Shown here: positions 6,192 to 41,175 of the stretch, piece by piece
How positions within the stretch are numbered: the first letter of the stretch is position 1
Layout of the letters: each line of letters opens with the position of its first letter
Assembly: GCA_902800905.1 (NCBI GenBank)
Contig: CADCGC010000001.1
Coordinates: forward strand, 117,336-181,335
Reading direction: 5' to 3'
DNA length: 64,000 nucleotides
Origin: an uncultured Erysipelotrichaceae bacterium
Lineage (GTDB): Bacteria > Bacillota_I > Bacilli_A > RFN20 > CAG-826
Position numbers and translations under genes: made by a program
Notes under the pieces: model-generated
Seen by the model: only the letters and a program-made list of their open reading frames with translations
The model's database searches: none
What the model was told of the DNA's origin: nothing

Positions 6192-6961
6192 AAGTTGTCC
6201 TTTTCTATTATTTTAATAATATCATTCATTCTGTATCCTTTTTGTAACAAAGATTGAATGACTTTTTGTTTTAATTCTTTTTTTGCATATTTTTTGCTTA
6301 ATCTCATCTTAGTTTTAAGATAAGCGTCTTTGAGTTTCTTTAACTCTTCTTTTTCGTCTTTCTCTTCTAACATCGAGTCAACGACGAACTTAGCGATATC
6401 GCTATCAAAGCCGCTCGAGATATAAGCGTTATAGATATGTTGTTTCTTTTGAGCAAAGTTATATTTGGAATATTTCTTTTCAAGTCTTTTAAAAATAGCC
6501 TTCGCTTTCTTCTTTTCAGTTGAGACAGGGAATGAGATTTTATTTAGTCTCTCTTCAAAGATTCCTTTAGAAGATAATTTAGAAATAATCTTATTCTTTC
6601 CATAATTCAAAGAATTATAGTATTCGATATGTTCTAAGATAAAAGCGTTATCATCAATCAAATCATATTCCTTCATCCTTTTGATGATTGTGTCCACAGC
6701 CTTCTTATCTCCACCTTTGTTATAGAGTTTTTCTCTCATTTTGTATTCGGAGTAGATAGCTTTAGAACGTAACGCTAAAGCGTATTTCATTAAAGAAGCA
6801 ATTTGATTGTATTCTTTGATACTTTGATATTCCTTTTTAGTTAACTCTTTTCCTTCGTATAGATAAAAGTTTGGATAGACATCTTTGTCTAATTCCAACT
6901 TTTCATCATCAATATAAATATTGACTTTATTCTTGAGGATTTTGATTTTCGTGATTTTCAT
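6188..6961 (-). CDS. recX: RecX regulatory protein
   Basis: SEYKMREKL, LIDDNAF, YGKNKIISKL..KGI and LLQKGY RecX repeats. Confidence 0.85.
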   Translation of the reverse strand: MKITKIKILKNKVNIYIDDEKLELDKDVYPNFYLYEGKELTKKEYQSIKEYNQIASLMKYALALRSKAIYSEYKMREKLYNKGGDKKAVDTIIKRMKEYDLIDDNAFILEHIEYYNSLNYGKNKIISKLSSKGIFEERLNKISFPVSTEKKKAKAIFKRLEKKYSKYNFAQKKQHIYNAYISSGFDSDIAKFVVDSMLEEKDEKEELKKLKDAYLKTKMRLSKKYAKKELKQKVIQSLLQKGYRMNDIIKIIEKDNL

Positions 6962-8057
6962 GTTGTTTTCTTGGTCGATAAATAAGGGCTACTAAGCAAG
7001 CAATAATAAGTGGGAAGATGAACATCAAACTTCTCCAAAGTAGAAGCGCCGCTCTAGCAATTTGCTCAGTGTCATAAAATTGTGGTCCAGTTGTTGGATA
7101 GAATAAACGTAAGAAGAATAATTCAGAAACAACTGAACTACCTGGAATAGGGATAATACAAGTCACCATTTGATGGAAATTGGATAATAAAACTGAATCC
7201 CAGAAGTTCGCATTAGCGGATGTATTTCCTAAAGAAAGTCCACAGAAATATGGAACTGAATATGAGATAGTAATATATGCAAAAAAGGCGACAAAACATA
7301 TCAAGAAAGTCGGTATATGCTTAAAGATAGTCTTTAAATTGCCTCTAAAATTAATTACCGCTGCGTCTAATTTCAATTGGCTTTGTTCTAAGCCTTTTAA
7401 GATTCTGATTTTCACTAACAACTTAATAATTGGGCCCCTAATAAAACGGAAGAAACCATTCCAATAAGAGATAAGAAGAATAAATCCAATTGATAAGGTG
7501 TTAAACGCAAAACCAATCGCCACTAGTAACCATAATGGTACTTGAGCAGCGTTATCGTTATTAAACGAAATAGAAATATAGCCAATCTCATTAATGAGAT
7601 CATGTTTCACAATAATAGTGATAACACCGTAAGCGATTAAGACAATTTGATAAATGATGGAATACATCGCTAAAACGCTTAAAGCGTTAGAGATACTAAC
7701 TCTTTGTTTGTTATAGGTATATGTCTCCATGATGTGACTACCGATACCCGCTGGAGTGACCATACGATATAATGAGCCAATCTGGTCAATCATAATAGCG
7801 CGATGGAAATAATAATCTTTTTCAAATAAACGAGTTAATGTGAAGATAGAAATCGATCTTAAAACAATGCAAACGATAACGATAGCTAATATGGCAAATA
7901 TAAACCATATATTAGCGGTACTCAAAACATCAAAAATATCATTAATCTTATTCCCAATAGTGAGATAGAACGCTAAAGCGGTCAAACCTAAAACGATAAT
8001 GAGATAGATAACATATCTAATAACTTGTTTAATAATTTCGTTATTCTTTATAGACAT
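6927..8057 (-). CDS. Lysylphosphatidylglycerol synthase TM (flippase-like) family membrane protein
   Basis: Multiple TM segments, VTPAGIGS, IPIPGSSVVSELFF, ALLLWR. Confidence 0.75.
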   Translation of the reverse strand: MSIKNNEIIKQVIRYVIYLIIVLGLTALAFYLTIGNKINDIFDVLSTANIWFIFAILAIVIVCIVLRSISIFTLTRLFEKDYYFHRAIMIDQIGSLYRMVTPAGIGSHIMETYTYNKQRVSISNALSVLAMYSIIYQIVLIAYGVITIIVKHDLINEIGYISISFNNDNAAQVPLWLLVAIGFAFNTLSIGFILLISYWNGFFRFIRGPIIKLLVKIRILKGLEQSQLKLDAAVINFRGNLKTIFKHIPTFLICFVAFFAYITISYSVPYFCGLSLGNTSANANFWDSVLLSNFHQMVTCIIPIPGSSVVSELFFLRLFYPTTGPQFYDTEQIARAALLLWRSLMFIFPLIIACLVALIYRPRKQHENHENQNPQE

Positions 8058-25466: not shown

Positions 25467-26213
25467 TTATAGTTCAATTATTCCTAAATCCACAAAAGAC
25501 AAGAAAACCAACGAAAGAGTGATATATGCTCCACTTTGTTTATAGTAATTGTCTTGAGATGAGAGAATACAGCAATTCATTTCTTCCATATCATCAAGCA
25601 CGCTATTATCAAAACGTTGTTCTTGTAGAATTCTCAAAATGGTTTTTATCATTGATTCGGCGCCAGTTAGCAATTCTTTTTCTTTTATGTCACAAACATC
25701 ATATTTTTTCGCGTAACATTTCATTGAATCACTAGTCGCACAATTTACATCATCTCCAAAACACTCACAAAGTAATGACTGAACACATGGGTAACTTACT
25801 AAAAGCAAACCGTTAATTTCTAGATTGTTATCTAAGGAATTCTTAAATGTTTTAAATAGTGATTTAAATTTTTTATAAGAGTTGCTTCCTATATCTCTAT
25901 CGAATATCAAATATCTAGCGCACTCATCTTTTTCTAATCCATAGCCTTTTAACTTTGAATATATGTATTCTACATAACCAACAGAATCCTCAATTTTGCT
26001 TATTGCAGAATATTTCATAGGAACTATAAACGCTTTTGAATATTTATCGTTTGGGTTAAATAAGTATGTGACATTATCATTTCTTTTATCGTAAGTTACA
26101 ACTGAATAATGCAGAACATCACTAAATATATGTCGTAAAATGAGCACTTCGTCGACATCGCCTTCTACCAAATATAAAACCTTTCCAATTCTTTTATTTG
26201 GTTTTAGCTTCAT
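25467..26213 (-). CDS. RloB-like TOPRIM-fold protein (pair 1)
   Basis: YLVEGDVDE, LIFDRD, VSYPCVQ. Overlaps the upstream ATPase. Confidence 0.6.
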   Translation of the reverse strand: MKLKPNKRIGKVLYLVEGDVDEVLILRHIFSDVLHYSVVTYDKRNDNVTYLFNPNDKYSKAFIVPMKYSAISKIEDSVGYVEYIYSKLKGYGLEKDECARYLIFDRDIGSNSYKKFKSLFKTFKNSLDNNLEINGLLLVSYPCVQSLLCECFGDDVNCATSDSMKCYAKKYDVCDIKEKELLTGAESMIKTILRILQEQRFDNSVLDDMEEMNCCILSSQDNYYKQSGAYITLSLVFLSFVDLGIIEL

Positions 26214-27354
26214 ATAAAGGAATGCCCCCAAATGCACCACTTAGATACATTTTTTCCATATTTTGTGATTCCCTCATTCCGTGCGAAGAAAACTTTGTGA
26301 TAACTGAACTGTTGTTTTCGAAATCAACAGCATAGACTTGATCTGGTCTAATAATGCTGGTCTTTAAGATATTTGTTGAATGCGAGACAAAAAACATCTG
26401 ACCATCACTACATTTTTCAAAGAAGTAACGCACCAACAATTCCTCCAAATCATTATGAAAACCGCTAGAAAACTCATCAATTGCTAGCATTCCACCGCCA
26501 TTAACTACTGTTAAATACGATGGAAGGAAAGATAATAATATTTGATTGCCAACTGATTCCATATAAAACGGAATTGGAGCCAAATCTTTTCTTTGAAAAA
26601 AGATTCTATACTCCGCAGGTATTAGCTGGACAGTTGGAAAAGCACCAGCATTATATTTTCTTGATTGATAAGAAATAGTGAAAGGGAAATCAAAGTATTG
26701 CAAAAAATCATTGATATCTTTTTCACCATGGAGTTCTAAATATTGTTCTAAAAACAACTCTTGGCCTTTCTTTTGGTCAAAAGAAACGAATTTAAATACA
26801 TCTCTAATTGGATTAAAGAAGATTGATTTTTTTAGGTAATCAAACCACTTATTTAGCACAGGTCTCCCGGTGAATTTAGTGTTAAAATAAATATTTCTTA
26901 AGAATAAGGTGTTTCTGTCTACTTCATCATAATCTGTGTTTTCAGTTATAAACGATTTTGCCGATCCAATTTGTCTGTCTAATAGCAAGTCATCATCTTG
27001 ATATAATTTTTCATCGGTAATGCCTTTTACTCTATCAAACCCAAAAGAATAGACAACCTTGTGGCCATCAATCCTAAAACCATATTCAAACCACATCTTT
27101 TTTTCTTCGTTGAATCTAGTGAAACAATCAGGGGATACCGAATAAGGTTTAAAAAGAAGATCTAAGAGAATTGTTATGGCGTTTAAAGCATTAGTTTTCC
27201 CAGACGCGTTTGATCCATAAAAAGCACAACCCTTTAATACACCTTCTTTTGAAATGTTTGTTTCGTTTAGATACTCAATTTTAGATGGCCTGAGGTCAAC
27301 AAAAGTCTCATTAGTAAATGATTTAAAATTTTTAAATTTAACTGTTTCCAACAT
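26194..27354 (-). CDS. ABC-type ATPase, AAA_21/RloA-like (pair 1)
   Basis: KNFKSF, GSNASGKT, ESVG, AIDEFSSGFH, VSHS, RPDQ, YLSGAFGGIP. Confidence 0.85.
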   Translation of the reverse strand: MLETVKFKNFKSFTNETFVDLRPSKIEYLNETNISKEGVLKGCAFYGSNASGKTNALNAITILLDLLFKPYSVSPDCFTRFNEEKKMWFEYGFRIDGHKVVYSFGFDRVKGITDEKLYQDDDLLLDRQIGSAKSFITENTDYDEVDRNTLFLRNIYFNTKFTGRPVLNKWFDYLKKSIFFNPIRDVFKFVSFDQKKGQELFLEQYLELHGEKDINDFLQYFDFPFTISYQSRKYNAGAFPTVQLIPAEYRIFFQRKDLAPIPFYMESVGNQILLSFLPSYLTVVNGGGMLAIDEFSSGFHNDLEELLVRYFFEKCSDGQMFFVSHSTNILKTSIIRPDQVYAVDFENNSSVITKFSSHGMRESQNMEKMYLSGAFGGIPLYEAKTK

Positions 27355-27355
27355 A

Positions 27356-27432
27356 TTTTTTACACTTTCTGACTACATTGTAGTATTTTTTTTACATATC
27401 GTCAACTTTCTAATGTAATTTTTTTACACTTT
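27356..27432 (-). promoter_or_regulatory. Sigma-A promoter flanked by two 13-bp direct repeats
   Basis: Minus-strand TTGACG-17-TACAAT. ttttttacacttt at 27356 and 27420. Confidence 0.55.
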
Positions 27433-27523
27433 TGCTTGATAATTCATGCATTCTTATATATCTTAAATATGGTAAACCAAGTGGCGAATCCACTATAAAA
27501 TTCAAACAAAAGGAGAGGCGCAA

Positions 27524-27928
27524 ATGACAATTAATAAGGACTTAGCGATGAAGCTATGGAACGACATCTATGGGGATAAGCGATTTGTTCAAGATTGTTT
27601 TGGAACCTGGATGTGCAGAGATGCATATAGCAACGAAGTTGTTTCTATGAAGGATCACCTAGGCGGACCAAACTATTATGATTATAGTTGGAACGTTGAT
27701 CATATTAGGCCTAAATCAAGTTTTGTGAATGAACAAGAAGCCGATTCATACAACAACTTCGAATTGATTCACCGACAAAACAATCTTCAAAAAAGCGATG
27801 ATTATCCTCATTTCCAAGTAAATCACAAACAATATCGAGTCGTTAAAAATTTAAACGGTGGATATGGGATTGTAGATTCAAACGGAATAAGAGTTGATTG
27901 GAAAAAAGACGGAAGATACTATCGCTAA
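27524..27928 (+). CDS. HNH-like endonuclease
   Basis: WNVDHIRPKS..NFELIHRQNNLQKSDDYP, with an AGGAG RBS. Confidence 0.75.
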   Translation: MTINKDLAMKLWNDIYGDKRFVQDCFGTWMCRDAYSNEVVSMKDHLGGPNYYDYSWNVDHIRPKSSFVNEQEADSYNNFELIHRQNNLQKSDDYPHFQVNHKQYRVVKNLNGGYGIVDSNGIRVDWKKDGRYYR

Positions 27929-27930
27929 AT

Positions 27931-27985
27931 AAAAAGCATCCAAATAAAATCATCTGTCAGCGAGATTATAGGAGGATGCTTTTTT
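27931..27985. terminator. Terminator-like stem with a long structured loop
   Basis: aaaaagcatcc...ggatgcttttt. Confidence 0.55.
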
Positions 27986-28290
27986 AATTCTATCCAAAAC
28001 AAGTGGTAATGTAAATAATGATTAAATACGTATTCAAACTTAAAAGAATCGCGCAAAAGAGTGTATATAACAGAAAAGCTTTGTAGGAAAACATCGGTTG
28101 AAAATACTAGTTTTCTGCGATGTTATTCTGTTAAATACAAATATAAAAGATTATAACGCTATTATTAATTTGCAAATATATATAAGGTGATTATCCGACT
28201 ATAAAATCACACCACTGAATGGCGAGATTAACAAATAATCATTAAATCATGAACAAAAGTTTGCAAAACACAAAAATGTCCGTGATTGAT

Positions 28291-30954
28291 TTATTTTTTA
28301 GCTTCTTTAATTATAGTTTCGCAAATAGATTTGTCATTTATTCTCATTATAGAGTCATTATATGCAATTGTTTTAAAGGGATTAATACCTCCATACCACA
28401 ATATTTTTTGATCTATTATAACCGCATTTATTTCAAGATTTGTCTTTAACAAGCCAGAAATATTTTTATGCTCAATTGTTTTATTGCTATGGGTAAATAT
28501 CTTTACATTGCCACATGTGTTCAACAATTCATTTATCACTTCATCGTTATAATCGTTAATGATAAAAACAACTTCTTTTTTTGAATCTATTAAGTCCTCA
28601 AATAATTTTGCTTTATAGTCATAAGTTGAATATATTTTTCTTTCAAAAATAACTTCATCGCCGCTGATAACGTATCCAAGTTTTTTATATGCTCTTAATC
28701 GATTGTGATACATACTTTCAAACATCTTTACATTGATATCAACATAATCATGTACTTCTACATCGTTTTTATCTTCATTTTCACGGTGCAAGCGTCCTAC
28801 ATATTGTTCTAATGTTCCATTCCATCTAAATGGTGAAACAATAAATAGTGTATCTAATTTCTTTTCATCAAAACCTTCACCAATATATTTTCCAGTAGAA
28901 ATAATAACAAACCCCTTTTTAGCTTTTTTAATATTCTCGAAAAATGTTTTCTTTTCACTGTTTGATAATTGCCCACTAATTACAAAAACATCATTAATAT
29001 TGTTAAGCTTATTTTTTAATATACTTATATGCTCAATCCTATCTGTTAGAACGATAATATTTCTTTTTGCTTTGTATGCATTTTTTATGTCATTAACAAT
29101 TCTTTCATTTCTTTCTTCATCAAACAACAAACATGAAAGCATATTAGAATATGATGTTGTTTTTTCCAAGGATGTATATGTAAAAGATGTAAATTCAGGC
29201 TTTAGGATTTTATCAAAATTGCTATCTTCGTCTTTATATTGATATCTGATATCGCCAATAGTTTTATAAATAATCTTTTCGTTTTTATCACTTCTTTTTG
29301 GAGTTGCAGTAAAACCATATAAATATTTGCTGTAGCACTTTCTGACAATCTGTTCATACGTCGAAGCAGCAATATGATGAACTTCATCAAAAATAATGAC
29401 ACCATATTGCTTTAATATTTCTCCACTTTCTTCACTTAATAGCGAGTCAATACAAGCGATATCAATCATATTTGTTAACTTCTTTTTATTACCACTATAT
29501 TGACCAAATTTATCTTTTTCTTTTTTAAACTCGTATCCAACATCTAAAAAAGTATTTAATCTATCTTTCCATTGTTTCAATAATGTTAAATTTGGAACAA
29601 TAATAAGCGTGTTTAACTTTAATTCAGCTATAAGTGCAATAGCGGTAACTGTTTTACCATATGATGGTCGAGCAACAAATAAACCATTATCATATTTTAA
29701 TAATTTATCAAGACCGTCTTTTTGATAATCCTTAAGTTTGCCATTAAAGGAAACCATTATCATATCTCCCAAAGTTTGCTTATCTTTAATAACTATCTCA
29801 ACGCTAAAAAAGTTAAGCACCTTAACCAAGTCTTCAAAACATCCTCTTGGAAGATAAATGAAAGATTCATCTTCGTGATAAAGTTTTTGAATTCTTGGAA
29901 TTGTATAGACTGATATGCGATTCTTTTGCGCCTCATAATATTTAGGGTTAGGTAAACTCGCTAACCTATAAATAAATTTAACACTCCTATCATTTAATGC
30001 TGCTTTAGGAACAAGTATTTCGTTTTGTTTTATTAATATGATTTGTTTAGCAAAATCATCTCTATTGAGTTTAATATTTTTAAGAACGTTTTTGTTTAAC
30101 AAAGGGAAAAAGTCAGCTTCTTTATATTCACTCAACAAAGCATCTACTTCTTCCTCAAAAACCTTCTTTGTGCTCGCTAAAACGTTAATTTGATTTTTCA
30201 TATCATATGGAATAAAGTTTTCATCGACAAAAACTGTCTTTCCCTCGATTGCTTTCCTCCCTTGAAGCGGTAAAACAATTAGGCTGCCATATCCTCTTAT
30301 AGGCACGTAATCTTGTGATGGAAACATTCTATCAAGAGAAGAAAAATTAATTCCTTTTGATGAATCCATAGCCTCATAAATAAGATAAGTTCCTAGCCTT
30401 CTAACTTTAGAAGCTTTTATTGGCTTGTCAAAAAATAGCCAAACATGAGCGCCGCATCCTGATGAAGATATTTCTATTAGATTGTCTAGATGATGGTTAT
30501 TGCAAACATTAGAAAATGCTTTGGCACTTTCTTTATAATCTTCGTCATCAAAATCTACCGCTAGTAGTCGACAGTAGTCTCCTTTTAACAGTGGATATAT
30601 TCCGAATGTATCATTACCAATTAAATGACGTTTTATTTCCTTTTCTGTTATACCGATATATTGTTTGTTAACGCATTCACTACATGTATTCGGACAATAA
30701 CCTGTTAAATTGTTTCTACCCAGACAAGCTGGAGAAAAGCCTCTTTTACCTTCTTTTGAATAATATTCATACGCAAAGATATCGTCTCTACCAGCAAAGT
30801 AAGATATGTATGTTTTTATTTTTTCATTGTCTGAAAAACCAAATTGTTTTATTTCCTTTGGTTTTTCAAATGAGATATTGTGCATTCGTAAAAGATTTTT
30901 AAGATATTCATTCTCTTCTTCAAGCTTTGCAATTATTTCATCTTTGTCATTCAT
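28291..30954 (-). CDS. AEP primase-like domain fused to an SF2 DEAD/H helicase (TOTE-conflict type)
   Basis: GIYPLL..LAVDFDD, SSGCGAHVW, DRMFPSQD, then SYGKT, DEVHH, TATP, QYVGRLHR. Degenerate PLD-like tail. Confidence 0.8.
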   Translation of the reverse strand: MNDKDEIIAKLEEENEYLKNLLRMHNISFEKPKEIKQFGFSDNEKIKTYISYFAGRDDIFAYEYYSKEGKRGFSPACLGRNNLTGYCPNTCSECVNKQYIGITEKEIKRHLIGNDTFGIYPLLKGDYCRLLAVDFDDEDYKESAKAFSNVCNNHHLDNLIEISSSGCGAHVWLFFDKPIKASKVRRLGTYLIYEAMDSSKGINFSSLDRMFPSQDYVPIRGYGSLIVLPLQGRKAIEGKTVFVDENFIPYDMKNQINVLASTKKVFEEEVDALLSEYKEADFFPLLNKNVLKNIKLNRDDFAKQIILIKQNEILVPKAALNDRSVKFIYRLASLPNPKYYEAQKNRISVYTIPRIQKLYHEDESFIYLPRGCFEDLVKVLNFFSVEIVIKDKQTLGDMIMVSFNGKLKDYQKDGLDKLLKYDNGLFVARPSYGKTVTAIALIAELKLNTLIIVPNLTLLKQWKDRLNTFLDVGYEFKKEKDKFGQYSGNKKKLTNMIDIACIDSLLSEESGEILKQYGVIIFDEVHHIAASTYEQIVRKCYSKYLYGFTATPKRSDKNEKIIYKTIGDIRYQYKDEDSNFDKILKPEFTSFTYTSLEKTTSYSNMLSCLLFDEERNERIVNDIKNAYKAKRNIIVLTDRIEHISILKNKLNNINDVFVISGQLSNSEKKTFFENIKKAKKGFVIISTGKYIGEGFDEKKLDTLFIVSPFRWNGTLEQYVGRLHRENEDKNDVEVHDYVDINVKMFESMYHNRLRAYKKLGYVISGDEVIFERKIYSTYDYKAKLFEDLIDSKKEVVFIINDYNDEVINELLNTCGNVKIFTHSNKTIEHKNISGLLKTNLEINAVIIDQKILWYGGINPFKTIAYNDSIMRINDKSICETIIKEAKK

Positions 30955-30963
30955 TTTTTAAAA

Positions 30964-31151
30964 TGCACCAAAATTTACACCAAAATACACCAACTATTTT
31001 AGATGGTATTTTTTGTTAACTTCAATAACTTGATTATCAATGATAAGTTTTGTTAATTGATGTGATACAGAATTAACCACCCTTGCATAGCCTAAATAGC
31101 GACATAGTTCAGTTTTTTTCTTGCACCAAAATTTACACCAAAATGCACCAA
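30964..31151. repeat. Two 30-bp direct repeats, each made of three TRCACCAA units
   Basis: 30964-30993 tgcaccaaaatttacaccaaaatacaccaa versus 31122-31151, 29/30 identical. Confidence 0.9.
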
Positions 31152-31370
31152 GAATTCGAAACGGTGCTTTTGCCACAACTTTTTTATCATAAGCGCCAGT
31201 TAAGGACACTATTTTTGATATTTTCTTAATTTTGGCGTCGTTAACCGCCATTTATCTCTTCTTTTTGAATATTGTGTCATCGAGACTTTGACCAATATTA
31301 TTTTTAATTCCGAGAATATTTATTGTTTCACGGAATCTCACTATAACTTTCATTCCATATTGATATCAAC

Positions 31371-32243
31371 TTAATTTACTGAAGATAGTTCATTAAGTGT
31401 TGAAATAAAAAGTTCTTTTTTCCAAAATTTTAAACTTTCCTTGTCAATAATGAAGTTGGAAACATCCGCTTTGGCGGATTCATAATCAATAGATTCAAAT
31501 TTTGCTCTAAGCAATTCTTTGACTTTATCCAATGTTAAGGTTTCATCATAATCTATAATTCCACCAGTATTTTTCAACTTGCTTTCAAGATATTTGAGAT
31601 TGAATTTGCTTCCCTTGCCAATATAGAAAAGATAATCATAATAATCTCTTCCTTTGACATGGTTTTTATAACTTCTACACAAAATAGCGTGTATCTTTCC
31701 TGAAAACAAAGTTGCTTCATCAAATATTCTAACCTCATATGGAGCGGGTAACATTTTGTATTTATATTCAGTGACTCCACCAATAGGATTATCAGTATCT
31801 ACTTCAAACTTAATTTTTATCTTTTGATTAGACACTACTCTTTTTGCATCTTCGCTTTTCGGGAAGAAAGACATCATAAGCATTAATGTGTTTCCTTTTA
31901 GGAACGCGCTTTGGACATCATTATTTTCATCTTTCTTTTTAGGCTCAATAATCATATCTATGCCATATGATTCAAATTCTTTTTTAAGAACAGAAAAGTA
32001 ATCCTCTATCTTAAAATTAGAATCTTTTTCTAATAAAGCAAAATCAAGATCCTCGCTAAAGCGATTTAAGCCATGGAATATTCTTAAACACGTTCCACCA
32101 TAAAAAGCTGCTTTTTTAAAGAAACCACCACGCGATAAACCCGCTAAAGCAATTTCTTGAATTATTTCTTTAATTGCATTTTCTCTTTCCTCGTTATTTT
32201 GAGGATTATACTTTGCAAGCATTGTTTCGATAACACTATTCAT
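31371..32243 (-). CDS. AbiEii-family nucleotidyltransferase toxin (copy 2)
   Basis: AFYGGTCLRIFHGLNRFSEDLDF, KFEVDTDNP, KGRDYYD. Confidence 0.9.
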   Translation of the reverse strand: MNSVIETMLAKYNPQNNEERENAIKEIIQEIALAGLSRGGFFKKAAFYGGTCLRIFHGLNRFSEDLDFALLEKDSNFKIEDYFSVLKKEFESYGIDMIIEPKKKDENNDVQSAFLKGNTLMLMMSFFPKSEDAKRVVSNQKIKIKFEVDTDNPIGGVTEYKYKMLPAPYEVRIFDEATLFSGKIHAILCRSYKNHVKGRDYYDYLFYIGKGSKFNLKYLESKLKNTGGIIDYDETLTLDKVKELLRAKFESIDYESAKADVSNFIIDKESLKFWKKELFISTLNELSSVN

Positions 32244-32829
32244 GGCTATATTCCTTTCTAATTAGTTTAATTAACATATCTAAATTCGTTTTCTTATATA
32301 AAGATGCTAGTCTCATCATCAACATAAAATCACATGTTGAGAATTCTTTTTCATCAATTCTTTTGTCTACGAATAGTAATTCCTTAAGAGATTTAACACT
32401 ATTAACTACTCTCCACTTGCTTAAAGAATCACAAATTGCCTTCTCCTTAGTAGCAATCTTTACAGCGTATTCACCTTTTTCTAAATAAGTTAATCCTTCT
32501 GAAAAAGCTAAAGATGGAACATCGCTATATTCAAATCTTCCAAACTTATTTATAAATGTCTTATTCTTTCTAATATTTAATGACGCTGAAGTAATTGAAA
32601 AAACTTTCTCTGGTATTAATCCATAATAAGATAAAGCCCAATCAAAACTAAGATATGATGGAGATAATATAGAGGAGGCTAAAAAACATGGTTCAACTCC
32701 ACCATCAGTTTCATAAATTCCCCTAGTAAGTCTAAAAAGTATACCGCTATCTGTATCTCTTTTAATCTTGTCTAGTGGATTAGAATAATCACTATATCTA
32801 TTTCTAAGCATTGATGCTGTAATTATCAT
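32236..32829 (-). CDS. AbiEi-family antitoxin (copy 2)
   Basis: RGIYET, PSYLSFDWALSYYGLIPE, IATKEKAICD. GGAGG RBS before 32829. Confidence 0.88.
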   Translation of the reverse strand: MIITASMLRNRYSDYSNPLDKIKRDTDSGILFRLTRGIYETDGGVEPCFLASSILSPSYLSFDWALSYYGLIPEKVFSITSASLNIRKNKTFINKFGRFEYSDVPSLAFSEGLTYLEKGEYAVKIATKEKAICDSLSKWRVVNSVKSLKELLFVDKRIDEKEFSTCDFMLMMRLASLYKKTNLDMLIKLIRKEYSHE

Positions 32830-33369
32830 ATTTGCTCCTCCAAATACAATTATATTGGATTTAATGGAGATATCAAGTGTATTTTTATAGATAAACAATC
32901 AAAATATTGTTGCGATAAAGTTCGATTTTGCTTTTAGACAAATTATCAACACTCACAGTCGAGAATTTATCATTTCTTAAAAATTCCTTTACTGCTCATT
33001 TATATGCAAACTGTTTATACTCACTAAACACTTTTGTGATATTTAATAAAACTGTTTAGTAGAAAAGTGTCGTTAAATCTAAGTTATGGCGTAACTTTTA
33101 CATTTTTTCAAATTATTACGCTTTAACGCCCATTTTTCGTGATTGACATGAACAATCTAAAAACATAACAAAACTGCAAATTATGCATTTTTGTAACCCC
33201 TACACATTCAAAATTAGTAACTCCTACAATTAAAAAACTGCTTGAATAACTTTTTATCTTGATGGATTTATAGACACATAAGGAACAGGCACCACTATGC
33301 ATAATAAAGACAAGGTTATCTTAGATAAGAAATCTCCATACGACTATAACATCTGTCTTTATATCTTAG

Positions 33370-33405
33370 AAGCGGTTACCAGTGAACATTGTTCCGGGAT
33401 AAGCG
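33370..33405. repeat. 36-bp dispersed repeat, copy 1
   Basis: aagcggttaccagtgaacattgttccgggataagcg, 32/36 identical to 41589-41624. Confidence 0.85.
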
Positions 33406-33419
33406 ACATTTAAATATCG

Positions 33420-34064
33420 CTAATTCTCGGGATTGCTGTTATCATCAATTGTCCCGCCGATTTTATTTAAGTCTTCCAATATTTGTTTAACGCTTTCTTT
33501 GTTTCGCGAACAAACGATAAATTCAAATACATCGTCATCTATTTCAATCGCTGATTTACAAATATTAACCAATTCATTTCTTTCTTCTTCATTCATCTTT
33601 GTTATTAAACTTGTATATTGTTCTTCGGCTTTTTTCTCTTTTTCAATTGTTTTACTAATTCCTATTTTTAATCCATACAAAACCATAAAAACCAAAAAAC
33701 AAAAATCAACAACAAAAATAGGGATTGATTTTCTAATGACGTCTTCGTCAAAGTTACTAATTAAATCATATTGAATACAATTACTTAAAAAGGTCGAAAC
33801 AATAAAAGAAACTCCAATAAATATGTATCTGTGTTTCTTAAAGAAAACAACTTTAGATAAAAGAATATCAAACAACATGTAAACAAGAAAAGAAGTAGCG
33901 AACGATCCTGCCCACGCATTGATATTTGTTATTCCATTAATATCAAATGTTTTAGTTGTTATGTTATTTACAAATATTAAAAACGCTGCAACAAGAGGAA
34001 ACACAATTAAATCTGTGTTTACTGATGCAGCTGCTTTATATAAAGAAAGGTCTTTGTTAATCAT
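33420..34064 (-). CDS. Hypothetical 4-TM membrane protein
   Basis: Four hydrophobic helices and a charged C-terminal tail. GGAGGTG RBS before 34064. Confidence 0.65.
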   Translation of the reverse strand: MINKDLSLYKAAASVNTDLIVFPLVAAFLIFVNNITTKTFDINGITNINAWAGSFATSFLVYMLFDILLSKVVFFKKHRYIFIGVSFIVSTFLSNCIQYDLISNFDEDVIRKSIPIFVVDFCFLVFMVLYGLKIGISKTIEKEKKAEEQYTSLITKMNEEERNELVNICKSAIEIDDDVFEFIVCSRNKESVKQILEDLNKIGGTIDDNSNPEN

Positions 34065-34153
34065 ATAAGTCACCTCCACAATTAAAAAACAGCTTCGCAA
34101 AAAAGAATCAGTGATAATAAATCGCAACACTCAAAATAGTGTGCTTAGATGCA

Positions 34154-34945
34154 TCATTTATTTGATAAGCGACTTTCAAAAAACGAAATAACTTCACCAG
34201 CATTATCAATATCTTTTGTTAAACCATTTATATAAGCGATAGAAACATATATAACAGTTGTGAAATATCGATAAATAACATATGACTCATCTTTGTTTTC
34301 ACAATTTACTCTCTCGTTAAACTTGTTAATCCATTCAACAACCAACCTTGGATGTTCCATTATGTTGTTTTCTTTAAAATCTTCGCAGTTTTTTCTTATA
34401 AAATAAATGGCGCTTTTTTCAAAATTATTAACAATATAATCAATTGTATTTGTCTTCAAAGACGAATAATAATTATTGAGGTCAACTTTATATTCGTTTA
34501 TTCTATGATATTTTTCTTCTTTTCTATCTAAATCATAATCGCCAAGAACCTCGATACAAGGCGAACTTAATAAGAGCATCCCACTAGATTCATCATTAAA
34601 CTTCGCAAACATTTCACTAACATCGTCACAATCGTTGTGATCGACATCGTAAATCAAAAATATTCCTTTAAAGTAGGCATATTCGTAATGAAACGCTCTT
34701 TCAACCGAATAGCAGTTATCGTTGTAGTATTTCAGAAAATCATGAATTCTATTTCTTGGCCCTTGAATAATTACAATATTATTTGTATCAAGGGAATACT
34801 CAAGTTTGGACAACTGTCCAACATTCTCGAGATCGAGTTTTTCTCCACAAACAATTGCGTTGAACCCATATCTTTCTAAAACACGGCTAAAAAGAGTCTT
34901 TTCATCTATTTCTCCTTCAACAATAAAAAGGAAGTTTTTAGCCAT
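34154..34945 (-). CDS. RloB-like TOPRIM-fold protein (pair 2)
   Basis: LFIVEGEIDE, LIYDVD, LSSPCIE. Confidence 0.65.
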   Translation of the reverse strand: MAKNFLFIVEGEIDEKTLFSRVLERYGFNAIVCGEKLDLENVGQLSKLEYSLDTNNIVIIQGPRNRIHDFLKYYNDNCYSVERAFHYEYAYFKGIFLIYDVDHNDCDDVSEMFAKFNDESSGMLLLSSPCIEVLGDYDLDRKEEKYHRINEYKVDLNNYYSSLKTNTIDYIVNNFEKSAIYFIRKNCEDFKENNIMEHPRLVVEWINKFNERVNCENKDESYVIYRYFTTVIYVSIAYINGLTKDIDNAGEVISFFESRLSNK

Positions 34946-36089
34946 TATCTATTGCCTCATCAAAAACAGAAGATAAATACATTTTTTCAATGTTATTAAC
35001 TTCTCTTATATTTGGATAAATCTTAGACAACCTGTAATATTTCGAATAGCCGTTTGACCATTTTGAAAAATAAATTTGATCAGGTCTAAGCATTTGAAGA
35101 ATGAATGTATTATGAGATGAAAAAACCAACTGCACATTCTTCTTTTTCAAAACGCTTAAGAACGATTTTATTGCTGATGGATGAAGAGCTTGCTCTAATT
35201 CATCAACAAAAAGCACACTATGATCTGGCATCGATACCAGAATTGAAAGTAAAGCGCTTTGGTTTTTCATACCTGACGACATCATTGAAAGAGGCAATTT
35301 TCCTTTAAAGCCTTTTCCTTCAAGTATTAAAGAATATTGCTCAGTCGGAATATTTAAAGAATCAGAATTATTGTTTCTAACAATACTATAGATAGGGAAT
35401 TCATCATATCCTTTCAAAATATCCTTAACTTTTTCAGAATGATTAACAAGCAAATCAAAATAATTGTAGTTTTTATATATTTTTGAAGTAACAAAGCCCC
35501 TATTTGAATTAATTAGTGGAAGATTAACGAAAACAAACGAGCAAATATAAGAATAAACTTGTTGGATTATTTTATCTTCAATTTTTATCGATGCAAGTAT
35601 TCTTAAAGCCGGGACGAGTTTTGATACGTTATCATAAACATAGTTTTCTTTAATATAATTATAGGCGTTTGTGGTTCTATTAAAATATACCTCTCCGTCT
35701 TTCTTTAAATATTCTTTATCGATTCTCATAAAAGGAGCGGCTGTAGTAGAAATGTAATAATCGTAATCTGAGCCATCCAAATCAAAGAACAATTCAATAG
35801 AACCAATAAGTAAGTTCTTGTCTTTTTTCTCTTTTTGGTACTTTTCAAAATCAAAATTATTAACAACAAACGGAAACAATGTTTCTGCTGGCTCAACCAT
35901 AAGGTTGATCAAAGTGTGAATACCATTAAAAAATGATGATTTTCCACTACCATTGTGTCCATAAAAGGCAATCGGATTTACAATGTCACCTTTGACATTA
36001 TCATCCAAGAACTTGTAACTTCCCTTTTTAAAATCAATTTCACACGTTTCAATTGAACTGATGTTTGTCATAACAATCTTCTTAAGCAT
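34938..36089 (-). CDS. ABC-type ATPase, AAA_21/RloA-like (pair 2)
   Basis: GHNGSGKSS, MSSG, FVDELEQALHP, SSHN, RPDQ, IEKMYLS. Confidence 0.85.
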   Translation of the reverse strand: MLKKIVMTNISSIETCEIDFKKGSYKFLDDNVKGDIVNPIAFYGHNGSGKSSFFNGIHTLINLMVEPAETLFPFVVNNFDFEKYQKEKKDKNLLIGSIELFFDLDGSDYDYYISTTAAPFMRIDKEYLKKDGEVYFNRTTNAYNYIKENYVYDNVSKLVPALRILASIKIEDKIIQQVYSYICSFVFVNLPLINSNRGFVTSKIYKNYNYFDLLVNHSEKVKDILKGYDEFPIYSIVRNNNSDSLNIPTEQYSLILEGKGFKGKLPLSMMSSGMKNQSALLSILVSMPDHSVLFVDELEQALHPSAIKSFLSVLKKKNVQLVFSSHNTFILQMLRPDQIYFSKWSNGYSKYYRLSKIYPNIREVNNIEKMYLSSVFDEAIDNG

Positions 36090-36101
36090 ATTTTTATCCC
36101 C

Positions 36102-36178
36102 AACTGTATATTTTCTACAGTAATACTTTATTACAAAAAAGAGGGATAATCAACAACAAACTGTATATTTTCTACAGT
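36102..36178 (-). promoter_or_regulatory. Promoter flanked by two identical palindromic operator-like sites
   Basis: aactgtatattttctacagt at 36102 and 36159 (ACTGTA-N7-TACAGT). Minus-strand TTGATT-17-TAAAGT lies between them. Confidence 0.7.
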
Positions 36179-36248
36179 TTTTAAAAATCTGCTGTTTGCG
36201 AATTATCCCTTTAAAATATAATTATTAAAGTGTGACGAATATAAACTT

Positions 36249-38531
36249 TTATTCGTTGTCTTTGAACCTCTCATTAATCCATTTAATTAAATCATTATCA
36301 TTCATAAAACAACAATTTGAATTTCCTTGAGTAAGTATCGGAATGTATCTATTTAAGAATGGATAAATTGTAAATTTATTGAGTTGCTTTCCAATATAAT
36401 AGAATCTAACATCTGTCTTGGCCTTTCTAATACCAAGAGTTATTTTTTCACCAAACAAATCGAGTTCTTGGTAAATCCTACTTGCCTCACCATTGCTTGT
36501 TTTTCTTTTTATTAAACCAGAAGAATCTTTTTCAACAAACTCATTAAACACAAATACAAGGGTTTTACTTCTAGAAATAACATGCCAAGTTTCATTAAAT
36601 TTAAGATCTTTATCTTCGTCATTATATGAATAATTGTATAGAAAAACATTAATGCCTTGTTTTTTTAAAATATCACAAACGCGTTTTGCATCGGAATATG
36701 TGCCATCTTCTCTATTTGTTCCAAAATACGAAATAAAGACATCATAATCAAATTCTAATTGTTGAATTTCTTCATCTTCTTCTTTTGCGGGCTCATTTTT
36801 TATTGCATCAATTTTTTCACTTAATAATTCGCCAAGTTTTTCATCCTCGCAACAAATATATAGATTCATTGTTGACCTTGTCATTATTGTGTATAAATGA
36901 TTTATTAGAAAAGTATTATCAGAATAACCAGAAATACATATTTGATTATCGTCATCCAAGTGAATCATTTTTGGTAAGTATAAGTAAACAGATTCTATTT
37001 CGCGAGAAATAACGGAATATGCAGTTAAGAAATAATTATTTTGAACATCACTATCAAATAAAAGGAAAGGGTTGTCCTTATTTTTAATATTTTTGAACAA
37101 ATGATTGCCTATAGTAATCCCATCATGCAATTCGTCTGCGATGACTGGTATGACAAGATGCCTCTTACGCTGCATATCATTTAAATAAGAATCTATGAAT
37201 TTAGTCTCATCTTTCTGTATTGAAATGGAAAACTGGTTAATTGGGTGTGGTGATGAGTTATCAAAGCCTAATAAAAAACGGACATTCTTAATTATTTCCG
37301 GAGGGACACCTAGAGGTGTTGAGAAATAATATTCTCGATAATCTTTGTCACCGATTGATGCTTTAATTGCGTCAAATCCTTGATCGTATCTCGGATTTAA
37401 TCTTTGAGAATTATCGCCAAAGAATAGTGTTTGAGCGTGGTTTTTACAATTAATTATATCGTTAATTTCATCCAGCTCAGAAAGGACTCCATATTGTATT
37501 CCTCTTTCTTCAACAAGAGCAAGTCTTTGTGCTTCATCTACAATCAAATGAGATAAATCCAATTTATAATGTTTGCTTATCGATCCAGAAACCCAACAGC
37601 CATTGCTTTTGTGTTTCAAATCGTGATGAAATATCCTATCAGATGGGAATTTAGCATTTAAAACTCCAAAAGCATCTTTTAGCGATAAATAGAAATTGTA
37701 ATTCATTAATAGCAAATTGTAATCTGGGAAGTCATGAAGGAATCTCATGGCAAGTATTGTTTTGCCTGTGCGAGCAGCACCTTGACACAAAATGTACTTA
37801 ATGCCACTATCAATGTCGTTTTTAATGTCTACATATGCTTCCTCGTTTTCTGGAAAGAAATCAATTCTTCCATAGAATGCTTTTACACAATCAATTGAAT
37901 CCTTATTTTCGTTTTCGATTAGACTCAATTCCCCAGCAACATCTTCAACAAATATATTAGATTTGCTTTTGCCAAAAAGTGGTTTTTTATTTGCTTTTGC
38001 AAATCTATATTTGGAATTCCAATAATGAATATGAAAATCTTTGAAACTAATTTCAGAATCATCATCACATATAATCAAAACAAAATATATAAACGATCTA
38101 ACAAACCAAGAAGATTTTGCTTTTTTAAAATAGCTAAAAACATGATGGTTAACAGTATCTAAATTAGCAATATTAATTTTGCTACTAGGAAATCCGTTTG
38201 TGCTATCCCAACGAATGTTTTCATCGTTAGGCGTAAAACGATAGTTCTCTTTATTAGAGTCACTTAAATATTCATAAGCGTCTTGTTTATTTATAAAATA
38301 AAAAATGCAAGTTCTCCAATTTCGCTCGATATATTTATTTCCAAGATGGCTTTTCTTTTCTTGAGAATTTCTAACAATTGCAATATCAAAAGGATTATTA
38401 ATCAGAACGTTGTCTTGTCCAATGCATGGTTTTTGATCAGTACAAACGATATTTTTAAAAAAATAATCAATATATTGGTCCTTCCTTTTGCAGTAAGACC
38501 TTTTTATCAATTCCTTATAATTCATTTCCAT
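36249..38531 (-). CDS. Unknown N-terminal domain + DUF2075/Schlafen-like SF1 helicase + C-terminal TIR domain
   Basis: QGAARTGKT, LIVDEAQRL, GDNSQ, YTIMTR, then YDVFISY..GINVF..ISRSKTLVFVF..IYQEL. Confidence 0.7.
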   Translation of the reverse strand: MEMNYKELIKRSYCKRKDQYIDYFFKNIVCTDQKPCIGQDNVLINNPFDIAIVRNSQEKKSHLGNKYIERNWRTCIFYFINKQDAYEYLSDSNKENYRFTPNDENIRWDSTNGFPSSKINIANLDTVNHHVFSYFKKAKSSWFVRSFIYFVLIICDDDSEISFKDFHIHYWNSKYRFAKANKKPLFGKSKSNIFVEDVAGELSLIENENKDSIDCVKAFYGRIDFFPENEEAYVDIKNDIDSGIKYILCQGAARTGKTILAMRFLHDFPDYNLLLMNYNFYLSLKDAFGVLNAKFPSDRIFHHDLKHKSNGCWVSGSISKHYKLDLSHLIVDEAQRLALVEERGIQYGVLSELDEINDIINCKNHAQTLFFGDNSQRLNPRYDQGFDAIKASIGDKDYREYYFSTPLGVPPEIIKNVRFLLGFDNSSPHPINQFSISIQKDETKFIDSYLNDMQRKRHLVIPVIADELHDGITIGNHLFKNIKNKDNPFLLFDSDVQNNYFLTAYSVISREIESVYLYLPKMIHLDDDNQICISGYSDNTFLINHLYTIMTRSTMNLYICCEDEKLGELLSEKIDAIKNEPAKEEDEEIQQLEFDYDVFISYFGTNREDGTYSDAKRVCDILKKQGINVFLYNYSYNDEDKDLKFNETWHVISRSKTLVFVFNEFVEKDSSGLIKRKTSNGEASRIYQELDLFGEKITLGIRKAKTDVRFYYIGKQLNKFTIYPFLNRYIPILTQGNSNCCFMNDNDLIKWINERFKDNE

Positions 38532-38979
38532 GCCTTTATTTTAATCTTATAGATGTCTAATTAAAACAACATTCTCTAGAGAATAATTTTGAAAAAAGAG
38601 TTAAAGAATTATTTGAAATCACTATTCGTTTACTCTTTTTTTATCCTCGTATGTATCTAGTAAGAAATTTATGTATGCTGACACACAATCCACCGCTAAA
38701 AGCCAATATCTTCTTTGGAGATTAGTGAAAGCTCTTTATTTTCTTTGACCATCGCCATGCTTATTCCTCGGCGAGTTCAAAAAGACTTGCTTACTGGTCC
38801 CTTATTAGCAGCGTAGTCAGCAATATTTAATTAAGAATTTTATCAATAATAAGAATAAGGCGGTTAAAACGTTTTATTGTGTTTTAATTTAGCGAAGTTT
38901 TTATTCGCCTTCATCGTTTAATATCGTTAATGTCTTTTTTTAATGTGGCATGCTCTATTAAAAGATTATAAAGTTAGCA

Positions 38980-40956
38980 TTATTCAATGCCAAGTTTTTT
39001 AAAAAATACTCTATTTCTCAACTCAGAATCACTTATCATTTTATCAAAAGATATCAATTCAATATAGGCGTTATAGTTTTTTGAGAATAAAAACGCCCCC
39101 TTTTCATTATCAAAATAGGTAAAACCTAGCATTTTGATAACATTCTTAAGAGTTGGGGTTATGTCACAAACAGCATAAAGAAAATATTGAGTGTTATTGC
39201 CGACTCTTATTGGCCTTCCTTTTTTATCTAAAGCATCTCCTTTTTGGATTTTTTCAAGATACTTAATCAATTGTGTGTATGGATTATCTTCTATTGTGTA
39301 ATCATCTCGTTGGGGACGTTTAATTTCAAATATCGAAATTGTGTTATAAAAAGTTGATTCATCATCATCGCAAATAACAACCGGACTATCACAAACAAGA
39401 ATATCCGGCCTATTATTATCCGGATCGTTGCCTAATGCTATATCAGAAGCAACATAAATCGAATATGATAGCTTTTCGTCAATTAACCATAGGTTATGGC
39501 TCTCATAATTGCACGATTCGTTTGTGGATTTCATCGGAAATACCAAATTATGGATAACTTTTTCAAGCTCATATTTTCCATTTTCTCTTTTTCTAAGCGC
39601 TCTCTTAAAGATATCAAGAATAATTTTTCTTTTAGCAATATAATTTGTTAGAGCCGATTTATTCATTTCCGAAACTTTGTTGATTGTTTCAACAAGCTCT
39701 TGCTCAAAAGAATCATCTAAACCATCAGCATCGATTTTTTCAAGCACAGTATCACAATCTTTTTTTACTTCTTTTTCTAAATCTCTTTTAATTCTAAACA
39801 AAGAATCGTCAAGCTCTTCATCGCTAAGTCCAGGTTTCAATTTACTAATTTCTTCTTTTCTTCTATCGAGCAAATATCTATATTCAGGAGCCTGTTTAGT
39901 TGTATATTCTGCAACTCTTTGCATTTTTTCTACACTTGCTTTCTCTAAATATTTAGATAAAAACACCTTAGTCTTAGATACAGCTTCTCTTGTTATTCTG
40001 TTTATGGAAATCTCATATTCACTATCTTCATCAATTGAAAAAGATTGCCTATTATAATCGACATTTAGGTCTAAATAATCACCTGTCAAAATTCCAAGAT
40101 ACCAAAAACCTTCTTTAGCAAAAATTGTTTCATCTAAGTCAGTTATATTTTCATCAATTTTTTTGCTCTTAGCCAATCTATCGTTTGCACAATAATAAAG
40201 TTTATTTTGTCCGAACTCTTGGTTTTTAATTTTCATGTGGGTGATGTTGAAAAAATAATTATCTATAACAAAAGAGTCCTTTTTAGAATCACCATAATAA
40301 TCATTTCTAAACATTTCATTTATACAAATGCTATTTTCGCTGTCAATTAGATAAATCTTTGGACAACTATCAGACAGCAAACACACTATAAAGTGCTCAA
40401 TTGTTTTTGTGGCTATTGTAAAGATATTTGTTGGAACGTAATTTTTAAACTTCTCATTTATACCAATCATTTTAATGGTAGTAATTAATTCTTGCTCCTC
40501 AATATCAGTTACAGAATCTTCTATGTTATCTGAATTTTTGCCAAAAACAAAAGATCTCCTTAAATATTTGTCATTATCTTTATAAACGCTGTCAATTTCG
40601 ACCAAATTAAAAACTTTAAGCCAAGAAAACCTACCGTTACCTTTCCCACCATATTTTTCTTTTAGACGAGAATCGGACGTCATAAATGAATTCATATTTT
40701 CGTCAGTAAAACCTATCCCGTTATCCTTGATGATAAACTGGTCGATTGAACTATTATTATAATCTTCAAATAAATTATTTTCTCTCAACAATTCAATCTC
40801 AATCCTTCCATCAAACATAGATCCAGTTTCTTTTCTTTGATTAATTGAAAAAATTGAATTCGCAATCGCTTCAAATAAAGGCATAAGTGAATCGTTTTTC
40901 GTTAATCGATAATTATTTACTTTGCCTTTTATATTCATTGAATAATCTCTTCTCAT
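38980..40956 (-). CDS. GHKL (MORC-like) ATPase with C-terminal PD-(D/E)XK nuclease
   Basis: EAIANS, DNGIGF, GGKGNGRF, HNLWLIDE, RPDI..IFEIKRP. Exact start uncertain (40938, 40956 or 40977). Confidence 0.8.
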   Translation of the reverse strand: MRRDYSMNIKGKVNNYRLTKNDSLMPLFEAIANSIFSINQRKETGSMFDGRIEIELLRENNLFEDYNNSSIDQFIIKDNGIGFTDENMNSFMTSDSRLKEKYGGKGNGRFSWLKVFNLVEIDSVYKDNDKYLRRSFVFGKNSDNIEDSVTDIEEQELITTIKMIGINEKFKNYVPTNIFTIATKTIEHFIVCLLSDSCPKIYLIDSENSICINEMFRNDYYGDSKKDSFVIDNYFFNITHMKIKNQEFGQNKLYYCANDRLAKSKKIDENITDLDETIFAKEGFWYLGILTGDYLDLNVDYNRQSFSIDEDSEYEISINRITREAVSKTKVFLSKYLEKASVEKMQRVAEYTTKQAPEYRYLLDRRKEEISKLKPGLSDEELDDSLFRIKRDLEKEVKKDCDTVLEKIDADGLDDSFEQELVETINKVSEMNKSALTNYIAKRKIILDIFKRALRKRENGKYELEKVIHNLVFPMKSTNESCNYESHNLWLIDEKLSYSIYVASDIALGNDPDNNRPDILVCDSPVVICDDDESTFYNTISIFEIKRPQRDDYTIEDNPYTQLIKYLEKIQKGDALDKKGRPIRVGNNTQYFLYAVCDITPTLKNVIKMLGFTYFDNEKGAFLFSKNYNAYIELISFDKMISDSELRNRVFFKKLGIE

Positions 40957-41175
40957 TTTTAAACCTCGCCCCACCATTAGATTAATATCTCATCGAAATG
41001 CATATACGTTGTCATAGTTTGATGTGTGATACTTTTTCTTTATTAAATTAAAACACGCAGTTAACAAATAAGAGTTAACTATCTTTTGTGCATTGTATAG
41101 ATCCATATTATCTATTATGGAATATCCACGATATTAATTTTATATCATAAAATATGTTTTAGTTGATAATAATAT

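Follow-up and report, generated by a model that had tools for sequence, protein, structure and literature searches.

A helicase-TIR fusion protein, probably an unnamed one-gene defence against phages, in an uncultured Erysipelotrichaceae bacterium

In a 64,000-nucleotide stretch of DNA from an uncultured Erysipelotrichaceae bacterium (contig CADCGC010000001.1, positions 117,336 to 181,335; hereafter the window), we have identified on the minus strand a gene, at 36249-38531, whose product consists of three parts: a family-specific N-terminal domain, a superfamily 1 (SF1) helicase and a TIR domain tethered through a linker. Probably this helicase-TIR gene is by itself a defence against phages, of a rare and unnamed kind. 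The reading that we favour, with somewhat better than even confidence, is a stand-alone, single-protein anti-phage system of the abortive-infection type, at which a helicase sensor would gate a TIR domain that cleaves nicotinamide adenine dinucleotide (NAD+), that is, a TIR NADase.

The original prediction, made from the DNA letters alone, had placed the gene at exactly these coordinates; the coding strand is the minus strand, which carries one uninterrupted open reading frame (ORF) of 760 codons plus stop (protein P0001), while the plus-strand translation of the same positions is riddled with stops. The parts of the gene are as follows.

36249..38531, minus strand: whole ORF, 760 aa plus stop, with 23 full-length homologues (query included) at 36-100% identity
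37875..38531, minus strand: N-terminal domain, residues 1-219, family-specific, no Pfam match, confident in the full-length model
36792..37874, minus strand: SF1 helicase core, two RecA-like domains, Schlafen group 3/DUF2075 type, residues ~220-580
37758..37781, minus strand: Walker A (motif I) GAARTGKT, residues 251-258; G251, A253, R254, G256, K257 and T258 invariant in 22/22
37524..37547, minus strand: Walker B (motif II) LIVDEAQR, residues 329-336; D332, E333, A334, Q335 and R336 invariant in 22/22
36750..36791, minus strand: acidic, low-confidence linker, residues 581-594 (PAKEEDEEIQQLEF), predicted local distance difference test (pLDDT) below 50 at 584-591
36252..36749, minus strand: TIR domain, residues 595-760, a divergent subfamily outside the reach of Pfam TIR models
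36465..36467, minus strand: codon of Glu689, predicted catalytic, at the start of helix 685-698; invariant in 44/44 and aligned with the TIR_2 Glu

A search of 5.8 billion proteins gave 31 at E <= 0.001, and the 23 full-length members have 735-811 aa. The family alignment holds 22 of these 23, P0008, which scores almost as P0007, being left out. Walker A, Walker B, motif III, motif VI and the TIR Glu show no variation across the 22 aligned members, and a string of C-terminal residues is invariant besides the helicase motifs. Full-length homologues together with invariant motifs indicate that 36249-38531 is a real gene and not a chance frame. All motifs quoted in the original prediction were found in the 760-aa ORF and mapped back to the DNA; apart from those listed above they are GDNSQ (residues 372-376) and YTIMTR (547-552) in the helicase, and DYDVFISY (595-602) and SRIYQEL (684-690) in the TIR part. 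The acidic linker that it had claimed is also there, with 8 D/E in the 21 residues 576-596, and its length differs between the aligned homologues. The AlphaFold model of the full-length protein reached a pLDDT of 85.8 and a predicted TM-score (pTM) of 0.81. Sequence searches against the PDB gave no match at E <= 1 with the 760-aa protein, only three chance-level matches (E >= 0.25) with a profile of alignment A2 and none with a profile of the TIR alignment (A3) described below, and a terminator and promoter scan detected sites no commoner than in shuffled sequence.

The SF1, Schlafen-like and DUF2075-type helicase of the original prediction was borne out by family and by fold. PF09848 (Schlafen group 3 helicase, formerly DUF2075) is the only Pfam family above threshold in the 760-aa protein (37.9 bits, cut-off 24, residues 247-394) and it matches 22/22 family members, with a best E of 9.5e-17. 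Motifs I, II, III and VI, including the motif VI arginine, are intact and invariant in all 22, and two RecA-like domains are present. The best Foldseek matches of the full-length model were SLFN14, SLFN11, RecD2, Dda, RecD and nsp13 (E 1e-8 to 1e-5), and residues ~220-580 superpose by fold on Rep, HelD, Dda, RecD2 and SLFN11. The N-terminal domain and this predicted ATPase-competent helicase make up one conserved module.

The N-terminus had been described as some 200 aa of unrecognised sequence; unrecognised it is, as Pfam has no match, though its length is rather about 220-240 aa. Invariant residues within it are mostly arginine and aromatic (R16, Y20, R73, Y149, W171, N172, Y175). In the 22-member alignment this domain shows no conserved acidic/lysine nuclease triad of the D...(D/E)xK type, and Pfam scans of the query and of the 22-member set, nuclease families included, gave no match to it. 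A NERD identity was considered and rejected: the ESM Atlas score was 0.85 (131-134 shared features), and hhalign against 23 NERD domains (30 loci minus 7 with an in-frame TGA) returned E 0.25. The fold of the N-terminal domain was assessed within the full-model searches, which barely covered residues 1-216.

Evidence for the TIR identity of the C-terminus comes from both structure and profile comparison. Residues 582-760 were searched against 1.84 billion representatives, giving 28 matches, and a 44-row TIR alignment was assembled, in which the query domain stands with 21 family members and 22 of 25 new matches (P0050, P0053 and P0054 left out). The only residues invariant in all 44 rows are N663 and E689. 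A model built from this alignment (pLDDT 94.2) has a flavodoxin-like alpha/beta fold that superposes on solved TIR domains. In a Foldseek search of the PDB, 20/20 matches at E <= 0.001 were TIR domains, as were most of the 50 rows among the matches listed; RUN1 (7e-5) was followed by RPP1, RPS4, SARM1, PdTIR, AbTir and TIR-STING, so that the NADases SARM1, RUN1 and AbTir are among them. Moreover, hhalign of the 44-row profile against 29 canonical TIR_2 domains, collected from 150 genomes of the same phylum, yielded a probability of 96.6%, E 6.2e-10 and a score of 60.8, as against E >= 0.14 and scores of at most 13.5 for the negative controls (one reversed and 20 column-shuffled templates). In this alignment E689 pairs with the conserved TIR_2 glutamate, and in the models it lies at the N-terminal end of helix 685-698. 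The hhalign result and its controls thus argue for a genuine, divergent TIR that keeps the catalytic Glu. The TIR domain and the plausible catalytic Glu of the original prediction are both upheld, the former by fold and by controlled profile-profile homology, the latter by its invariance at the TIR_2 position.

The same TIR subfamily occurs at the N-terminus of other multidomain proteins, with nSTAND1 NTPase, leucine-rich repeat, FGE-sulfatase, IF-2B-like and methyltransferase domains, a modularity that is typical of conflict systems. Three of these proteins (P0042, P0043 and P0045), of ~750 aa, carry the divergent TIR at the N-terminus and an IF-2B-family domain (PF01008), from a family that includes sugar-phosphate isomerases, in the C-terminal half. 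This pairing hints at a processing of a ribose-phosphate product of the TIR.

The most informative relatives are those that keep the N-terminal domain and the helicase and change the tail (P0028-P0031, four remoter relatives). P0029, which represents a cluster of 99 member sequences, and P0030 end in a DarT domain (PF14487, E 6.8e-7 and 9.4e-15, respectively); P0028 and P0031 have no Pfam-recognised tail. A 752-aa protein of metagenome locus L072 aligns with P0029 from end to end, including the DarT part, at 37% identity. The stop of this gene overlaps the start of a 226-aa ORF, and an ORF 74% identical to it has the same position in L073. This downstream ORF matches the NADAR protein of Geobacter lovleyi (PDB 8bat) at E 3.2e-52, and an overlapping NADAR ORF was present at both DarT-type loci recovered (L072:2-2937, L073:2-2280). 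According to the accessible text of PMC11543638, NADAR is the DarT1 antitoxin, which reverses guanine ADP-ribosylation, and the DarTG1 toxin-antitoxin pair protects against phage; that text gives no description of canonical DarT1 fused to a helicase. The survey of homologue architectures that accompanied the original prediction as a proposed check has thus revealed a swap of TIR for DarT. Because the relatives place DarT, together with its NADAR antitoxin, at the C-terminus, this slot appears to hold a toxic, NAD+-using effector. Two observations stand beside this: in L072 and L073 the DarT1-NADAR toxin-antitoxin pair takes a form fused to a helicase, and P0030 (1270 aa) has before its helicase a long N-terminal extension with BspA-type leucine-rich repeats and a Listeria-Bacteroides repeat, which may be an added recognition module.

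Homologue loci were compared in four named genomes (L001-L004: two Bacilli metagenome-assembled genomes, one Mycoplasmatota chromosome and one Bacillota metagenome-assembled genome) and in eight metagenome contigs. When all ORFs of the window region and of these 12 loci (13 in all) were compared with one another by BLAST, no conserved neighbour emerged among the TIR-type loci; the helicase gene is the only gene that they have in common. The single-gene nature originally proposed agrees with this, since neither a 5-locus nor the 13-locus comparison disclosed a conserved partner. Defence-type neighbours are found at 3/4 named loci and in the window. In L001, an Abi_2 gene lies upstream and an AAA_21 ATPase gene downstream of the homologue. 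In L002, a RES-domain gene (6917-8011) overlaps the homologue start by 11 nt, with glycosyltransferases downstream, and in L003 a canonical ThsB_TIR/TIR_2 protein of 169 aa (7372-7881) is encoded immediately upstream and PIN_8 downstream. RES-domain proteins are a family of NAD+-degrading toxins. As seen from the ThsB_TIR gene of L003 and the RES gene of L002, NAD+-linked genes recur beside the homologues, not as conserved partners.

The distribution of the gene is patchy. The helicase-TIR protein was found in 2/301 genomes of the class, in 0/27 other genomes of the family and in 0/3 of those sampled from the genus. At the DNA level, one of 10 other genus genomes gave a match to the gene, at 74% identity. 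As sampled genomes may overlap the named loci, the independent genomes with the gene number at least five. A search of sequencing runs gave partial DNA matches in animal-gut metagenomes, with no RNA run listed. The family is small, and its range so far comprises gut, rumen and marine Bacilli/Mycoplasmatota-type genomes.

How might such a protein act? In the uninfected cell, the TIR would be kept inactive. Upon infection, the N-terminal domain and helicase module may bind or translocate on phage nucleic acid (ssDNA, or a replication or recombination intermediate), and a conformational change or self-assembly would follow, bringing TIR domains together. The assembled TIRs would hydrolyse NAD+, and the depletion of NAD+ would halt the infected cell and hence the replication of the phage. 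TIR NADases are activated by self-association. This scheme leans on that property and on precedents for the helicase part: Nhi and Nhi-like are single-protein defences with a DUF2075 helicase (bioRxiv 10.1101/776245 and 10.1101/2022.05.11.491447), and in human SLFN11, as stated in PMC13056530, ssDNA binding to the helicase domain switches on an RNase effector.

Several points weigh against this reading. HMMER with the Pfam TIR models found no match in the 760-aa protein at E <= 1, TIR_2 (PF13676) matches only 4/22 family members, weakly (best E 0.0081), and it matches 0/25 remoter relatives at E <= 0.001; the C-terminal domain is regarded as a divergent TIR because Pfam TIR models miss or barely detect the family. 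The TM-scores of the C-terminal model to solved TIRs are moderate (0.4-0.55). As the N-terminal domain has no family assignment, the sensing step is one that we infer outright. Moreover, some TIRs produce signalling molecules or use other substrates instead of depleting NAD+. Nothing defence-like surrounds the homologue of L004, whose neighbours are an ABC transporter, a CAAX protease, WapI and a P-type ATPase. Finally, tblastn detected no homologue in phage or plasmid records, so that mobility of the gene is suggested by its patchy distribution only.

The L004 locus just described, together with the unexplained N-terminal domain, would also suit a helicase without any immune role, one serving repair, replication restart or the maintenance of a mobile element, with the TIR-like part as a protein-interaction or nucleotide-binding module and with its place next to a polysaccharide locus, in a variable region, owed to chance. 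In fact, the window copy and L002 adjoin sugar-nucleotide and glycosyltransferase genes, in variable regions that gather unrelated cargo, and animal TIR domains serve as scaffolds. We consider this unlikely, however: a housekeeping role is at odds with the extreme patchiness (2/301 class genomes), the predicted catalytic Glu is invariant (44/44), the swap for DarT and NADAR marks the C-terminal slot as the position of a toxin, and defence-type genes adjoin most named loci and the window copy.

Perhaps the TIR takes the functional place of DarT in a stricter sense, not simply draining NAD+ but acting on the strand that the helicase unwinds, by ADP-ribose transfer, cleavage or excision. We hold this to be rather improbable, and a more specific form of it, in which the protein is a chassis for effector delivery, its SF1 motor feeding viral nucleic acid past an NAD+-using enzyme on a tether, so that the TIR modifies or cleaves the extruded strand, seems doubtful to the same degree. 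If true, a strand-directed TIR would mean a nucleic-acid activity new for bacterial TIRs, and one coupled to a translocase. Yet neither a reversal enzyme nor an antitoxin is linked to the TIR-type genes, in contrast to the DarT-type genes with their NADAR, and this difference suits a latent NADase more than an enzyme that modifies DNA. In addition, the closest structural matches are NAD+-cleaving TIRs, and we know of no bacterial TIR shown to modify DNA.

The least probable reading is a Thoeris-like signal generator, whose cyclic-ADP-ribose-type or otherwise ADP-ribose-derived messenger would activate an effector encoded elsewhere in the genome: Thoeris TIRs do make signalling nucleotides, the L003 homologue directly follows a canonical ThsB_TIR gene and the host genome has six other canonical TIR_2 genes, but there is no conserved neighbour in 13 loci, PADLOC and Pfam scans of 10 window neighbours gave no ThsA-type match, and the module that stands in for the TIR in relatives, DarT with its antitoxin, acts directly as a toxin and not as a signal generator.

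The six TIR_2 genes of the 1.85-Mb host genome (G000), with open frames of 344-735 aa, lie on contigs C3, C12, C13, C14, C34 and C39. The host appears unusually TIR-rich, because canonical TIR_2 genes occur in only 17 of the 150 genomes scored in the phylum sample. Similarity to the helicase of the 760-aa protein was found near 0/29 of the TIR_2 loci in that sample.

Judged by its sequence, the helicase-TIR protein fits no named defence system among those compared. PADLOC v2.0.0 gave no family at E <= 1 for the 760-aa protein, the Nhi and Nhi-like content of its library being unconfirmed, and an NCBIfam scan gave none. We found no description of a helicase-TIR fusion in the literature, subscription journals, supplements and post-2023 defence catalogues aside, and nothing on a TIR fusion in the DUF2075 literature since 2021. 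These searches are in line with the original prediction, in which the architecture was not recognised as a named system.

The proposed mode of action resembles both that of sensor-fused TIR effectors and that of helicase-effector fusions of the Nhi and SLFN11 type. Nhi (S. epidermidis SERP2475) and Nhi-like (Millman et al. 2022) come close: one polypeptide combines a DUF2075/PF09848 SF1 helicase core with an effector, its gene lies in defence islands and no partner gene is needed. However, the effector of Nhi is an N-terminal PD-(D/E)XK nuclease, a signature that was not found in the helicase-TIR protein (Pfam, hhalign against NERD, alignment), whose effector is the C-terminal TIR, and the predicted outcome is NAD+ depletion instead of degradation of phage DNA. 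Human group III Schlafens (SLFN11, SLFN14) have as effector an N-terminal Slfn/AlbA_2 tRNase; the helicase-TIR protein has no Pfam match there and a TIR at the other end. With respect to the other sensor-fused TIR effectors (TIR-SAVED, TIR-STING, the TIR-APAZ of SPARTA and SARM1), the putative sensor is an ATP-driven SF1 helicase with its N-terminal domain and not a cyclic-nucleotide receptor or an Argonaute partner, and the TIR subfamily is too divergent for Pfam TIR models. Thoeris consists of two genes, ThsB and the ThsA effector; no such partner is conserved here, and ThsB has no helicase. DarTG1 is linked to the family through the sister proteins P0029 and P0030, which end in DarT, and L072 and L073, where NADAR follows, and DarT and the TIR (as predicted) both consume NAD+. 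The window protein differs from it in having no DarT match and no antitoxin gene among the neighbours scanned, where nothing NADAR-like turned up.

If the helicase-TIR protein does protect against phage, an ATP-driven Schlafen-type helicase would be a new class of sensor among the inputs that switch on TIR NADases, and the system would mirror in bacteria the working principle of human SLFN11, where nucleic-acid sensing by a helicase is coupled to killing by a fused effector. The exchange of TIR and DarT (with NADAR) on one chassis offers a clean comparative system and a good experimental entry point, which could reveal how one sensor drives two NAD+-consuming effectors and why just one of them needs an antitoxin. 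The practical weight of the finding is modest for now, since the family is small and its range narrow so far.

In the window, the gene lies within a defence island of ~15 kb (~25.4-41.0 kb; 25467-41000), bordered by an aspartate aminotransferase gene on one side and by sugar-nucleotide and polysaccharide genes on the other. All its genes are on the same strand save the HNH gene. Library scans of the neighbours gave the following assignments.

25467-27354, minus strand: AAA_21 ATPase and a 257-aa partner
27524-27928, plus strand: small HNH protein
28291-30954, minus strand: TOTE-type archaeo-eukaryotic primase (AEP) fused to a helicase
31371-32898, minus strand: AbiEii and AbiEi
between the AbiE and AbiL pairs, minus strand: 236-aa protein with a weak CARF_2M match (E 2.6e-4)
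34154-36089, minus strand: AbiLii-like and AbiLi
38980-40977, minus strand: 665-aa protein directly upstream of the helicase-TIR gene, its only match a sub-threshold HATPase_c_3 (E 0.0069)

AbiE, AbiL, TOTE and the other defence-type genes around it place the helicase-TIR gene among defence genes, as had been noted from the start. PADLOC has no match to the 665-aa neighbour, and sequence searches of the PDB with it and with the 236-aa protein gave nothing meaningful. Another genus genome (G358) has an 81%-identical copy of the 665-aa gene and no helicase-TIR gene, which argues that the 665-aa gene is a separate unit rather than a partner; possibly it is another uncharacterised defence gene. 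In the DNA search of the 10 other genus genomes, the TOTE gene and the 665-aa gene were each found in one genome, a different one for each. Since its pieces turn up one at a time in different genus genomes, the island is a mosaic of independent units.

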